Assembly: GCF_024700885.2 (NCBI RefSeq)
Contig: NZ_CP117016.1
Direction: 5' to 3' (one strand)
Length of the DNA: 64,000 nucleotides
DNA from: Escherichia coli
Lineage (GTDB): Bacteria > Pseudomonadota > Gammaproteobacteria > Enterobacterales > Enterobacteriaceae
A program made the translations under genes and the position numbers. The first letter of the stretch is position 1, and each line of letters starts with the position of its first letter. Shown piece by piece: positions 2,471 to 13,145 of the stretch. A model generated the notes under the pieces. The model saw only the letters and a program-made list of their open reading frames with translations, was not told where the DNA came from and ran no database searches.

Positions 2471-4232
<1,762 letters not shown>

Positions 4233-9933: not shown

Positions 9934-10707
9934 TCAGAATTTCCAGGTCAGATGGGCTGCAAGTTGCAGACCGTTATAATCATCGGTTGGGGTGTCGTAC
10001 CACACTTTACCTGCCGTCAGCCCGAGATTAAGTTGCTCAGTCAGCGGTTGAATACGTTGCAAACTGACGCTCTTCATGCTGCCGTAGCGTGTTTCTGGCG
10101 TCCAGTCATAGGTGTAAGCACCTGTTCCGCGGCTTAGCCATAGTTGCGTATAACCAGTGCCGCGCGGGTCATTCAGACGCACGGAAATCATATTGCTGTA
10201 ACTACCACCTGCATCGCTGGAGTCATAATGGGTATAGCGGTAGCTGGAGATCACCGGGCCAGTATAGAGTGATACGCCGCCTTGCCAGGCATCGACTTCG
10301 ACATCATCGTAATATTTAGTGTAGCGATAACCGGTCGTGAAAAGCGTTTTTGGCAACAGTGCCAGGTTAATATCCTGACGAAAATCCTGGCGGGCAAAGA
10401 CCGGCGTATTATCCGCAAAGGCAATACCCGTTCGGGTTGTCAGCCAGTTATTCCATTTATACCAGACCGCACCCTGACCGCGAGTGGCATTGAAATGTTC
10501 AGTTTCATAATCACGACGCCCCTGGGAAAGATTAAAAAGCAGCGTTGCGTTTTCAACTTTCGCCACCAGTTCAGCATACGCTAAATTACGGTTGCCATGA
10601 TCACCAGAATAATCGGTAAAATCGTAGCCCGCGGTAATGGAAGTTAACCCGGCATAAGCGGGCAATGTGCTAAAAATTGCTGCCGCTAATAACGTCCGTT
10701 TTATCAT
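9934..10707 (-). CDS. yaiO: outer-membrane beta-barrel protein
   Basis: 257-aa ORF with N-terminal signal peptide (MIKRTLLAAAIFSTLPAYA), alternating aromatic beta-strand pattern and C-terminal ...WKF. Confidence 0.8.
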   Translation of the reverse strand: MIKRTLLAAAIFSTLPAYAGLTSITAGYDFTDYSGDHGNRNLAYAELVAKVENATLLFNLSQGRRDYETEHFNATRGQGAVWYKWNNWLTTRTGIAFADNTPVFARQDFRQDINLALLPKTLFTTGYRYTKYYDDVEVDAWQGGVSLYTGPVISSYRYTHYDSSDAGGSYSNMISVRLNDPRGTGYTQLWLSRGTGAYTYDWTPETRYGSMKSVSLQRIQPLTEQLNLGLTAGKVWYDTPTDDYNGLQLAAHLTWKF

Positions 10708-10708
10708 T

Positions 10709-11419
10709 TTAATCTCCTGTACGGATAAGTTCTTGTCGGAGTGAATAAGTTCCGGGAGGTAAATTACGTTCTACAATCACGCGCGGGCCAAGTTGCGTGT
10801 TCGGGGAAATAATTCGCCCAGGCAAAATAATAACTTGTACGCCAAGGCGTGAACGCTGCCCGATATAACAACCTAATTTATCGCATTCGGTAGCGATAAT
10901 TCCCTCTGGAGTTCGAACAGACACGGGCTGTTGATCCAGACGATGATTACTGGTACGTACTTGTGCGCCCAAATATGCCTGGTTTGCAACTACCGAGTCG
11001 GCGATAAAGCATTGCGGACCAATCGTTGCTTCCGCTTCAATAACCGCATTTTTAATTTCGGTGGCAAAACCAATTTTTACGCCATTGCTGATTATTGTGC
11101 CAGGACGAATAAACGCATAATTACCTATCAGGCAGTTTGCGCCAATCACTACCGGACCCTGAATAACGGCACCGTGACAAATACGGGTATTCGCGCCGAT
11201 AACAACTTCACCTGCAGTTTCATCAATAATTACCTGGTCTGCAATCTGAATATTTTTCTCTTTAACATTAAGCTTCAGAAAGTTTTTCAGTTCCTGTGAC
11301 AGAAGATTGGGAATAAGCGGTTGACGCTTCCACCAGTGCGGAATAGCGGGTGGGTTTGTCGCGCTGAGGTTCGCGTCCAGTAAAAAAGGCAATAAGTCCA
11401 TAAATAATCCAGATGGCAT
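10709..11419 (-). CDS. yaiX: hexapeptide-repeat (left-handed beta-helix) acyl/acetyltransferase; true start probably downstream of 11419
   Basis: Repeated [LIV]-G-x-x-x-x-I hexapeptide pattern; the maximal ORF overlaps the yaiP 3' end by about 150 nt, so a shorter start is likely; uninterrupted here. Confidence 0.65.
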   Translation of the reverse strand: MPSGLFMDLLPFLLDANLSATNPPAIPHWWKRQPLIPNLLSQELKNFLKLNVKEKNIQIADQVIIDETAGEVVIGANTRICHGAVIQGPVVIGANCLIGNYAFIRPGTIISNGVKIGFATEIKNAVIEAEATIGPQCFIADSVVANQAYLGAQVRTSNHRLDQQPVSVRTPEGIIATECDKLGCYIGQRSRLGVQVIILPGRIISPNTQLGPRVIVERNLPPGTYSLRQELIRTGD

Positions 11420-12464
11420 AAGCTAATAATACATACACAACGGAAAGCGGTGCTAAAGGCACCAACAACCAGCAACGATGAAACCAGGCGCTAAAAGCAC
11501 CAATAACACAAACTACGCCGACCCAGATAAGCGGAAACATTGCCAACACCACACCATGCGGCCCGGTGGTAATGAATTCATTAAACCAGGTAGTGAGATA
11601 AATCCCAACGCCATAAAGCACAACCAACAGCATAGGAAATATACTGAAGATACCGAAGCGGCTAAATAAAAGCCTTTTATGCAGGCGCATACAGACCGCG
11701 TAGCCCACAATCCAACGCCGCCAGCGACGCCACTCCTCACGCGGGCTGTTGCATTCCTGTGGGTATACGATGCAGCGATTCGCCTGCCGAATACGATAGC
11801 CGTTTGCCACCAATGTCCAGGTGAGATCAAGGTCTTCGACTTTAGTACGATCGGAGAAACCGAACTTACGCAATACATCAGTACGGAACATCCCGCAGGC
11901 ACCGCTGATAATAAACGGTGCGTCGCCCAGGAGCTGCTGTAGCGTGCGCTTCATAACAATCATCGGCAACTTTACGGTCGCGCGGATGTGCGGTAACAGA
12001 CCCGCGCCTTTCAACGCAGTAGAGGGAATGCCGCCTACGGCATCAGCACCGCGCTCTATTTCTGCCAGCATATAGCCCATTCCGTCTTGATCGGGCGGAA
12101 CATAGGTGTCGGCATCACTTAAAAAAACCTGGTCGCAGGTGGCGTAATTGAGGCCATTCATCAGCGCACCACCTTTACCGGTATTTTTTTGCGTGACGGC
12201 AATAAAGCGGTCGCCCCATTTGCGTTTGACTTCCGCCATGACCGCTTCGGTATTGTCCGTGGAGCCGTCGTTAACGCAAATTACCCGGCAAAAATAAGGG
12301 TTACGCAGTAGATTATCCAGTGACTGTGCCAGACACGGGCCTTCGTTATACGCAGGTATAATGGCGTCAATACAACCTTTTTTTTGGCTGGGCTTACGCC
12401 TTAACGTACTCAGGAACCATAGCAATATTGCTACGGCCATACATATAAATATCCAGGTTTTCAT
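11268..12464 (-). CDS. yaiP: family-2 glycosyltransferase with C-terminal membrane domain
   Basis: 398-aa ORF; N-terminal TM segment, GT-A fold signature (PAYNEG ... DAD) and multiple C-terminal TM helices. Confidence 0.85.
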   Translation of the reverse strand: MKTWIFICMAVAILLWFLSTLRRKPSQKKGCIDAIIPAYNEGPCLAQSLDNLLRNPYFCRVICVNDGSTDNTEAVMAEVKRKWGDRFIAVTQKNTGKGGALMNGLNYATCDQVFLSDADTYVPPDQDGMGYMLAEIERGADAVGGIPSTALKGAGLLPHIRATVKLPMIVMKRTLQQLLGDAPFIISGACGMFRTDVLRKFGFSDRTKVEDLDLTWTLVANGYRIRQANRCIVYPQECNSPREEWRRWRRWIVGYAVCMRLHKRLLFSRFGIFSIFPMLLVVLYGVGIYLTTWFNEFITTGPHGVVLAMFPLIWVGVVCVIGAFSAWFHRCWLLVPLAPLSVVYVLLAYAIWIIYGLIAFFTGREPQRDKPTRYSALVEASTAYSQSSVTGTEKLSEA

Positions 12465-12473
12465 GCAATTTGC

Positions 12474-13145
12474 TCAAAGAATCATTTTATGAATTACAAA
12501 GCCTTCACCCAGATCGCTATTGACCTGTTGCCCGCGAAATTGTGCAACTGCACGCAGGCGATCATGACGCATATAATCGCGTCGTTCCTGGCTTTTATGT
12601 TTTTTTAATGCAGCAAGTTTGGCTGTGAAATATTCTTCTTTAACGGATTCAAAAACCTGAGGCATAAATGAAAGCCAGGTACTCGGGGTTTCGTAGCCGA
12701 GAATTTGTGGAATAGTGCGGCAGGCAACCATTGAAGCTTGATAAACAGCGAGATGATCCTGATGGCGGTCGGCATCATGCATGGTATATACCCGCATGAT
12801 TTCAACATCAGAAGGAATTTGATTTTTAATGATATCTTCCAGGGCGGAAATCATATCATTGAGCTGTAAATGCGCGCGGGTGTCAGCAAAATTAAGATGA
12901 ATAGTTTGGTGGCACCCTAATATCTTTAGGGCGTTGCGCGATTCTTCATGGCGATCGATTATTCCATCTGTGCCAGAGTTGCCGGTAGTCATCACCACGG
13001 CTGCGATATAAATTCCTTTTTGCGCAAGACGAGCAAGCGACGCGCCACAGCCCAATTCTATATCGTCAGGATGTGCGCCAATAGCAAGGATACCCTTTCT
13101 TTTATTTGCCGAAGAAAGGATGGCTGAATCTAAAACCTTATCCAC
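12474..13145 (-). CDS. yaiS: LmbE/PIG-L family N-acetylglucosaminyl deacetylase-like protein
   Basis: 223-aa ORF with N-terminal AHPDDIELG motif characteristic of PIG-L/LmbE zinc deacetylases; exact start uncertain. Confidence 0.78.
   Translation of the reverse strand: MDKVLDSAILSSANKRKGILAIGAHPDDIELGCGASLARLAQKGIYIAAVVMTTGNSGTDGIIDRHEESRNALKILGCHQTIHLNFADTRAHLQLNDMISALEDIIKNQIPSDVEIMRVYTMHDADRHQDHLAVYQASMVACRTIPQILGYETPSTWLSFMPQVFESVKEEYFTAKLAALKKHKSQERRDYMRHDRLRAVAQFRGQQVNSDLGEGFVIHKMIL

Follow-up and report, generated by a model that had tools for sequence, protein, structure and literature searches.

The start of yaiX in Escherichia coli and its probable 134-nucleotide overlap with yaiP

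The yaiP-yaiX locus

This analysis concerns the 5' end of yaiX in a window of 64,000 nucleotides (nt) from the Escherichia coli contig NZ_CP117016.1 (RefSeq assembly GCF_024700885.2). The window, by which we mean the whole stretch analysed, carries on its minus strand the four-gene operon yaiS, yaiP, yaiX and yaiO, in which the yaiX reading frame opens within the 3' end of yaiP. Both yaiP and yaiX are predicted genes for a surface sugar polymer that clumps cells. The genes lie as follows:

12474..13145, minus strand: yaiS, a PIG-L-type deacetylase gene, 223 amino acids (aa)
11268..12464, minus strand: yaiP, family-2 glycosyltransferase, 398 aa, ATG start, TAA stop at 11270..11268; Pfam Glycos_transf_2 (8e-28); annotated as yaiP in RefSeq
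10709..11419, minus strand: maximal open reading frame (ORF) of yaiX, a predicted hexapeptide-repeat (left-handed beta-helix, LbH) acetyltransferase, 236 aa, ATG
10709..11401, minus strand: yaiX coding sequence as proposed here, 230 aa, ATG (M7) at 11401..11399, TAA stop at 10711..10709; Pfam Hexapep (5.5e-18)
11268..11401, minus strand: yaiP-yaiX overlap as proposed here, 134 nt, yaiX at +1 to yaiP; 83-149 nt in orthologous loci (nine lineages measured)
9934..10707, minus strand: yaiO, an outer-membrane barrel gene

The maximal yaiX ORF has 152 nt in common with yaiP (11268..11419), and its frame is +1, one base downstream of the yaiP frame. This overlap had been seen in the initial annotation of the sequence, which put it at about 150 nt and offered two explanations: a downstream non-ATG start of yaiX, or a genuine out-of-frame overlap. 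The same annotation was right that no in-frame Met clears yaiP. The 236-aa translation has only M1 (11419..11417) and M7 (11401..11399), both within yaiP (residues are numbered from M1 unless stated otherwise). A TAG in the yaiX frame (11425..11423) stands just ahead of M1, and between this TAG and the tryptophan pair W29-W30 (WW) the window has just three canonical in-frame starts, M1, M7 and the TTG of L10.

Conservation and selection across the junction

Twenty-four loci were read, 16 of an enterobacterial type and eight distant ones. The enterobacterial-type set comes from E. coli, E. whittamii, Citrobacter (two paralogous types), Superficieibacter, Enterobacter and Salmonella, and further from L009, a metagenome-assembled genome (MAG) labelled Candidatus Ignatzschineria, L028, and two metagenomic contigs. 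L028 is a 200-aa form from an E. coli contig; its cluster and a near relative, the plasmid-borne P0051, are named as E. coli proteins. The distant set consists of Stenotrophomonas (L013, L014, L017, L018), Pseudomonas (L011) and the MAGs L010, L012 and L016. The following elements of the window were compared among these loci, or bear on the choice of start:

11402..11419, minus strand: six extra codons of the maximal ORF (MPSGLF), probably outside the protein; M1 ATG at 11419..11417
11408..11410, minus strand: GGA, the only Shine-Dalgarno (SD)-like element before M7, with a 6-nt spacer; supplied by a conserved yaiP Trp codon and the next base
11375..11401, minus strand: island of dual constraint, yaiX M7..D15 (MDLLPFLLD) over yaiP Y-G-L-I-A-F-F-T-G; holds a run of six T (T6) at 11387..11382
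11336..11374, minus strand: yaiX A16..H28 linker over yaiP R-E-P-Q-R-D-K-P-T-R-Y-S-A; the YaiX sequence follows yaiP
11335..11330, minus strand: TGGTGG, yaiX W29-W30, the family-wide N-terminal motif; yaiP reading (C)TG GTG G(AA)
11268..11329, minus strand: yaiX K31..N51 under the yaiP tail past the ancestral stop site (GCG 11327..11325); yaiX-type diversity
11302..11300 and 11290..11288, minus strand: CTG codons L40 and L44, used as starts by the NCBI Prokaryotic Genome Annotation Pipeline (PGAP); both downstream of the conserved WW

An alignment of orthologues, as proposed in the initial annotation, places the family N-terminus at W29-W30. Homologues of the 236-aa ORF were aligned down to 48% identity, and the distant ones (~206 aa, ~50% identity) start with M-W-W, aligned to H28-W29-W30. 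Among the 120 best homologues, 48 have exactly this MWW start, and seven more have a Met 2-4 residues ahead of WW. In the DNA, the motif stands 62 nt ahead of the yaiP stop. None of the 23 junction sequences printed departs from TGGTGG, and each of the 24 loci read encodes WW in the yaiX frame. The YaiP residues over it vary (L/V/M, then V, then E/D/A/G), only as the fixed TGGTGG permits. Because TGGTGG is fixed while the YaiP residues over it vary, WW is the constrained reading. Therefore YaiX begins upstream of 11335, and at least 68 nt of the overlap are real, whatever the exact start.

The distant loci point to the ancestral state of this junction. In all eight, the junction is ATGTGGTGGnnTGA, in which 14 nt are common to the yaiP end and the yaiX start. 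YaiP ends there in DKPTRYxxVV followed by E, D, A or G, with the stop 11 codons past the Asp (D+11), and the yaiX start, an ATG or GTG immediately ahead of WW, overlaps the TGA stop of yaiP. The Arg codon of DKPTRY is AGG, which creates an SD-like GAGG or CAGG 8-9 nt upstream of the start. A short coupled junction, with a start within a few nt of the stop and an SD in the upstream gene, was thus found in the eight distant loci and not in the window. In the enterobacterial-type loci (16 of 16), the codon ahead of WW has lost its role as a start, and the Arg codon is CGN. In the window, H28 is CAC (11338..11336) in place of the distant ATG or GTG, and the Arg is CGC (11348..11346) in place of AGG. 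The yaiP stop lies 2-24 codons past the ancestral one in these 16 loci (19 in E. coli), corresponding to D+13..D+35 in the 15 anchored on DKPTRY; L021 was read separately. The lengths of both genes agree with those of their enterobacterial orthologues, whereas compared with the distant ones YaiP is longer by 19 codons and YaiX by 21-22.

The stretch upstream of WW is also conserved, as an open frame. All 16 enterobacterial-type loci have an ATG equivalent to M7, no stop in that frame before WW is reached, and a yaiP stop that comes after WW. Taken alone, 50 codons free of stops in an alternative frame (a chance of roughly 0.09) are not significant; it is the retention of this open stretch in 16 of 16 loci that makes the overlap more than a chance event. 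A Met is found at the M7 site in four of the eight distant loci, three of which have stops before WW; the stretch is broken by stops in L011, L016 and L018. The M7 ATG is made by a Tyr or His codon of yaiP (TAT or CAT) and the following Gly codon (GGA), such that only the wobble T is free to vary, and it is T in all 16 loci. At a nearby yaiP Tyr codon (position -20), the same nine lineages have TAT and TAC in a ratio of 4:5. Within E. coli, 4856 of the 4861 matching records are at least 95% identical over the overlap, as sorted into coarse identity bands (the window has two private single-nucleotide polymorphisms), and with such bands a comparison of its diversity with that of two flanking 134-nt segments gave no further information.

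Synonymous differences in yaiP were analysed in nine representative lineages, comparing codons in sequence pairs with an identical amino acid. In the nine codons from -14 to -6, starting at the M7 ATG, the fraction of synonymous differences is 0.15, against a mean of 0.62 outside the overlap. No window outside the overlap is as low, neither among 291 of nine codons nor among 297 of twenty (lowest twenty-codon value 0.53). The suppression starts exactly at the M7 ATG codon, while codons -22 to -15 just upstream vary freely; from the ATG to the Tyr of DKPTRY, the mean is 0.36. Two of the five yaiP columns with an invariant residue in the nine-codon island also have an invariant codon, compared with 2 of 155 elsewhere (Fisher p = 0.005). 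Both are the rare Gly codon GGA in all nine lineages, which makes up 13% of the codons at other invariant Gly columns. The substitutions seen in the island fall mostly at yaiX wobble positions: the YaiP changes L to F, L to P and I to V are silent in YaiX. Because the tolerated substitutions are silent in YaiX and alter YaiP, the island has the signature of protein coding in the yaiX frame. Suppressed synonymous change, the mark of selection on a second frame, was found here and is confined to 27 nt.

Diversity by codon position was calculated as the pairwise mean in six lineages and is given below for yaiX positions 1, 2 and 3, which are positions 2, 3 and 1 of yaiP:

yaiP-only sequence: 0.16, 0.62, 0.32; yaiP-type
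M7..D15 (27 nt): 0.00, 0.04, 0.13; near-invariant in both frames
A16..H28 (39 nt): 0.11, 0.56, 0.24; yaiP-type
W29..L48: 0.33, 0.31, 0.58; yaiX-type
yaiX-only sequence: 0.22, 0.12, 0.60; yaiX-type

The pattern turns from yaiP-type to yaiX-type at WW. Beneath the YaiP tail, synonymous differences in yaiX amount to 0.63, the level of non-overlapped yaiX (0.56-0.64), and the tail past the ancestral stop varies in length and sequence among lineages. Judged by these substitution patterns, the overlap is made up of three parts: 27 nt constrained in both frames, 39 nt governed by YaiP, and 68 nt governed by YaiX, over which the YaiP tail appears to be unselected.

The favoured start and its alternatives

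On this evidence, translation of YaiX likely begins at the 11401 ATG (M7), in the +1 frame within the 3' end of yaiP, which would make the 134-nt overlap a real one. The predicted N-terminus of the protein is (M)DLLPFLLDANLS... Of the two explanations offered in the initial annotation, the homologue N-terminus, the conservation and the substitution patterns favour the genuine overlap and speak against a downstream non-ATG start, although the size is likely 134 nt, counted from the second ATG and not from 11419. No conserved ribosome-binding site and start codon were found at or beyond 11419. The suspected N-terminal extension before the LbH domain is present, but has two parts: W29..N51, conserved in the family, would be ancestral, and M7..H28 an enterobacterial addition overprinted on the final conserved stretch of YaiP.

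The initiation signals in front of M7 are modest. M7 lies in an AU-rich patch (the 39 nt before it have 28% G+C), and the fold from -20 to +20 has an energy of -1.6 kcal/mol, among the least structured 2% across yaiP-yaiX and similar to the yaiP start. Only this local energy singles out the patch of M1 and M7; unpaired probabilities in a long context did not distinguish the candidate starts. Since the E. coli yaiX start lies 134 nt before the yaiP stop, termination-reinitiation coupling cannot apply. Initiation at M7 therefore differs from that in short coupling overlaps (ATGA, TAATG), which the ancestral yaiP-yaiX junction resembles as a 14-nt version with an upstream SD. As far as sequence can tell, it probably relies on the AU-rich unstructured patch and the weak GGA, and not on coupling to yaiP termination. 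Neither a promoter-like site near the overlap nor an Rfam match at threshold in 11100..11600 was found; a single terminator-like hairpin equals the expectation from shuffled sequence, and a sub-threshold match to PYLIS_4 on the opposite strand (23 against a 50-bit cut-off) is a chance one. A TAATG does occur at the yaiP stop (11266..11270, minus strand) and was considered as a yaiX start, but its ATG (11268..11266) does not share the yaiX frame, begins an ORF of just 12 codons (MLKRKIFRLQTR) and lacks conservation in Citrobacter.

The history of the junction can be pictured as follows. The ancestor would have had the translationally coupled 14-nt junction that survives in Stenotrophomonas, Pseudomonas and several MAG proteobacteria, with the AGG Arg codon serving as SD. 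In the enterobacterial line, the start beside WW and its AGG codon would have been lost; initiation would have shifted upstream by 21-22 codons, onto an ATG that the Tyr or His and Gly codons of yaiP make up; and the yaiP TGA would have been lost, extending YaiP by 2-24 codons (19 in E. coli) across the yaiX start. Selection would act on the yaiP frame from 11401 to the Tyr of DKPTRY (11345..11343), on the yaiX frame from WW (11335) downstream, and on both frames in the first 27 nt after the new ATG. The YaiP tail past the ancestral stop would be read-through without selection. More tentatively, and with somewhat less than even confidence, we suggest that MDLLPFLLD is a newly created and selected peptide with its own function, overprinted on the hydrophobic C-terminal segment of YaiP within a bona fide 134-nt overlap. 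For example, the peptide may dock YaiX to the YaiP synthase or the membrane. The hydrophobic segment was assigned by eye from the sequence.

Several observations weigh against a start at M7, or limit what it implies. The SD is weak: GGA pairs with the anti-SD at -3.1 kcal/mol, and 39% of yaiP positions pair equally well. Because M7 has only GGA, the yaiP start itself pairs weaker still (-1.9 kcal/mol), and so many positions equal M7, a search for SD elements discriminates poorly. The island of dual constraint is only nine codons long. The 16 loci represent about nine lineages, and shared ancestry inflates simple counts. Moreover, the GGA and the ATG are built from the strongly conserved YaiP residues W, Y/H and G, such that the independent evidence comes from the wobble bases only. 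Residues 16-28 of yaiX appear to be without selection of their own, and most of the extension may be a leader peptide only. An extra ATG, 2-4 codons before WW, is carried by L007, L022, L025 and L026, in which a shorter YaiX form may be used. The NCBI PGAP picks starts other than M7. Lastly, while yaiP has to be translated as far as its stop at 11268, initiation by the ribosome at 11401 is what we infer from features that were read directly, namely the anatomy of the junction, its conservation, the substitution patterns and the ancestral state.

The public records disagree on where yaiX begins, with at least four N-termini (230, 197, 193 and 174 aa). In K-12, the curated record (NC_000913.3, b4579) starts with MDLLPF, which is M7, and has the 134-nt overlap with yaiP. 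RefSeq PGAP genomes that we sampled use the CTG of L44 (193 aa, 11290) or, in an ST131 genome, the CTG of L40 (197 aa, 11302), and one NCBI-sourced cluster of the 193-aa form (P0009) has 1845 member sequences. Other database entries start at the GTG of V63 (174 aa) or the ATG of M7 (230 aa).

A downstream non-ATG start, at the CTG of L44 or L40 or, in B2 strains, at the GTG of V63, would reduce the overlap to 23-35 nt or none and make the upstream open frame accidental. Besides the PGAP annotation, it is favoured by a GTG at position 44 in two Citrobacter loci, and by the survey of Palleja et al. 2008 (PMC2478687), in which annotated long same-strand overlaps were mostly start-codon errors. 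Yet the CTG starts discard WW and about 15 more residues that are conserved in homologues down to ~48% identity, although the yaiX-type codon pattern is already present from WW to L48 and the structure model is confident there (see below). In E. coli, CTG initiates very poorly. No SD precedes L40, and the AGGA ahead of L44 is just 1 nt away from it. We regard this explanation as very unlikely, and the PGAP CTG starts as probably wrong, since they cut off the conserved WW region. Equally within yaiP, the first ATG (M1, 11419) would give 236 aa and a 152-nt overlap, and it might serve beside M7. It is the in-frame ATG right after the yaiX-frame TAG, lies in the same AU-rich unstructured patch (local minimum free energy -1.9 kcal/mol, among the least structured 2%), and is conserved in E. 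coli and E. whittamii. However, it is absent in all other enterobacterial-type loci, which read PTLSGLFMD, RTLSGLFMD and similar, and in seven of them (L008, L009, L028, L022, L025, L023 and L021) a yaiX-frame stop lies 1-5 codons upstream of M7. M1 also lacks SD pairing (+0.9 kcal/mol), the yaiP synonymous sites just upstream of M7 vary freely, and the curated K-12 start is M7. A start at M1 is thus unlikely.

A near-cognate start just upstream of WW, such as the ATT of I26 (11344..11342), would yield ~211 aa and a 77-nt overlap. ATT is known as a rare start codon in E. coli (infC, pcnB). I26 is aligned with the extra ATG in L007, L022, L025 and L026, and with a Met in P0034, P0036 and P0054; the yaiP Tyr codon over it is TAT in 15 of 15 Tyr loci, and the site is always ATT, ATA or ATG in these. 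On the other hand, I26 has no SD, the ancestral AGG being CGC (+0.4 kcal/mol), and lies in strong local structure (-11.4 kcal/mol, 90th percentile). The site is ATA in four lineages and CTT in one, and its conserved T is equally explained by a hydrophobic I, M or L residue, which makes this start quite unlikely in our judgement. Finally, yaiX may have no start of its own, and a +1 shift on the T6 run (11387..11382) would produce a YaiP-YaiX fusion. The +1 frame of yaiX and the presence of GCC TTT TTT ACT in the near-invariant 27-nt island agree with such a shift. So does P0031, a 27-sequence cluster from read-archive assemblies, which reads ...IYGLIAF|LLDANLSATNPPAIPHWW..., a YaiP-YaiX fusion as from one T lost in T6, but a mutation, or a sequencing error in the homopolymer, is the simpler explanation. 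The T6 run is broken in five of the 16 loci: L004 (TTTGTT), L026 (TTTTTC), and L021, L022 and L025 (TTCTTT). No stimulatory element was found in the region, which is unstructured and gave no Rfam match at threshold; in the distant relatives, yaiX clearly has an SD and an ATG of its own. We consider a frameshift extremely unlikely. All these alternatives are weaker than initiation at M7, as none of them accounts for both the conserved M7 ATG and the 27-nt island: the CTG and I26 starts explain neither, and the frameshift leaves the ATG unexplained.

The coordinates favoured here are already in the curated K-12 annotation, and the kind of event, a start relocation with a stop loss, is known and holds no new principle. 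The curated K-12 start appears right and could be propagated to other records, while the widespread RefSeq CTG form drops ~37 residues, including the family WW motif.

YaiX, its neighbours and known overlaps

YaiX belongs to the LbH (hexapeptide) acyltransferase family, with a match to Pfam PF00132 above cut-off (5.5e-18) and further matches to LbH families of Pfam. Counted from M7, residues 62-218 align to residues 241-397 of 5z09_A (E = 3e-21), and PDB 2ggo also matches. This part of YaiX resembles the GlmU-type C-terminal LbH domains, for example that of Sulfolobus ST0452 (5z09, 2ggo). Unlike ST0452, YaiX is a stand-alone LbH protein without a nucleotidyltransferase domain. A sequence search found no solved-structure counterpart for the N-terminal ~60 residues, including WW. 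The AlphaFold2 model of the 230-aa form has a mean predicted local distance difference test (pLDDT) score of 89.8 and short regular strands. The score is 52-57 in residues 1-20, which few aligned sequences cover, 83-88 between about WW and the start of the beta-helix, and 97-99 within the helix itself.

yaiX is unbroken in the window, whereas in K-12 MG1655 it carries IS2A after codon 94 (from M7) and is annotated as a pseudogene. EcoGene 3.0 (PMC3531124) notes that vegetative clumping is facilitated by a repaired yaiX' and requires yaiP; yaiX is therefore functional when intact. In our literature search, this was the sole functional statement, and no discussion of the yaiX start or of the yaiP-yaiX overlap was found. 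The correct 5' end is needed for the repair or expression of this IS2-disrupted K-12 clumping gene, and mutations in the last 45 codons of yaiP also alter YaiX.

The neighbouring genes gave some further observations. yaiS is intact in the window (223 aa), while in K-12 a CAG-to-TAG change shortens it to 185 aa. The 39-aa ORF of ykiC, a small protein reported in K-12, lies antisense within the 3' end of the intact yaiS (12489..12608, plus strand). Strain MLI114 is 100% identical to the window over a 1871-nt stretch spanning the operon; its yaiS is labelled by PGAP as 'incomplete, missing C-terminus', though identical to the window over the aligned part. At the other end of yaiX, its stop and the yaiO start are 1 base apart (TAAAATG, 10705..10720, minus strand), with a GGAG SD in the yaiX end (-7.4 kcal/mol). 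This is a junction of the classical close-coupled type, in contrast to that of yaiP and yaiX. In Enterobacter sp. PGRG2 (L026), the called yaiX (241 aa) enters yaiO by 86 nt (3141..3226), and this same-strand overlap may be another stop-loss extension. Citrobacter braakii ATCC 51113 has two diverged yaiP-yaiX copies (L005 and L008), whose yaiX regions are 79% and 63% identical to that of the window (tblastn), and a search of E. coli gave 24-30 matches on plasmids. The two copies and the plasmid matches indicate that the operon is mobile or duplicated in some lineages.

Long same-strand overlaps have been viewed with suspicion. Palleja et al. 2008 (PMC2478687) examined 715 co-directional overlaps of more than 60 nt in 338 genomes and judged none to be real, and the longest genuine case was holD-rimI, with 32-56 nt. 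The yaiP-yaiX overlap is like holD-rimI in being a same-strand, out-of-frame 3'/5' overlap, kept across enterobacterial genera with a genus-dependent length. It is longer: E. coli has 134 nt and its relatives 83-149 nt, and a count from WW still gives 68 nt or more. If real, the 134 nt are more than twice the longest co-directional overlap accepted in the 2008 survey, and the locus contradicts the rule of thumb by which every same-strand overlap above 60 nt is an error. Because both genes exceed their distant orthologues in length, the length-versus-orthologue rule of that study would flag yaiP-yaiX as a '5' & 3'-end extension' error. Unlike such errors, the extension is conserved across genera and bears signatures of selection.

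In the model of Fonseca, Harris & Posada 2014 (PMC3887535), unidirectional overlaps arise from the loss of a stop codon (3') and the replacement of a start codon (5'). Both steps are seen here: the yaiP TGA was lost, up to the next in-frame stop, and the yaiX ATG was replaced upstream within yaiP. Two features go beyond the model. Both events affected one junction, which already overlapped by 14 nt, and the new 5' end is under purifying selection over nine codons, which makes the process not purely neutral. The locus would therefore be a clean, datable case of a short coupling overlap grown long, with a map of the selected frame by region.

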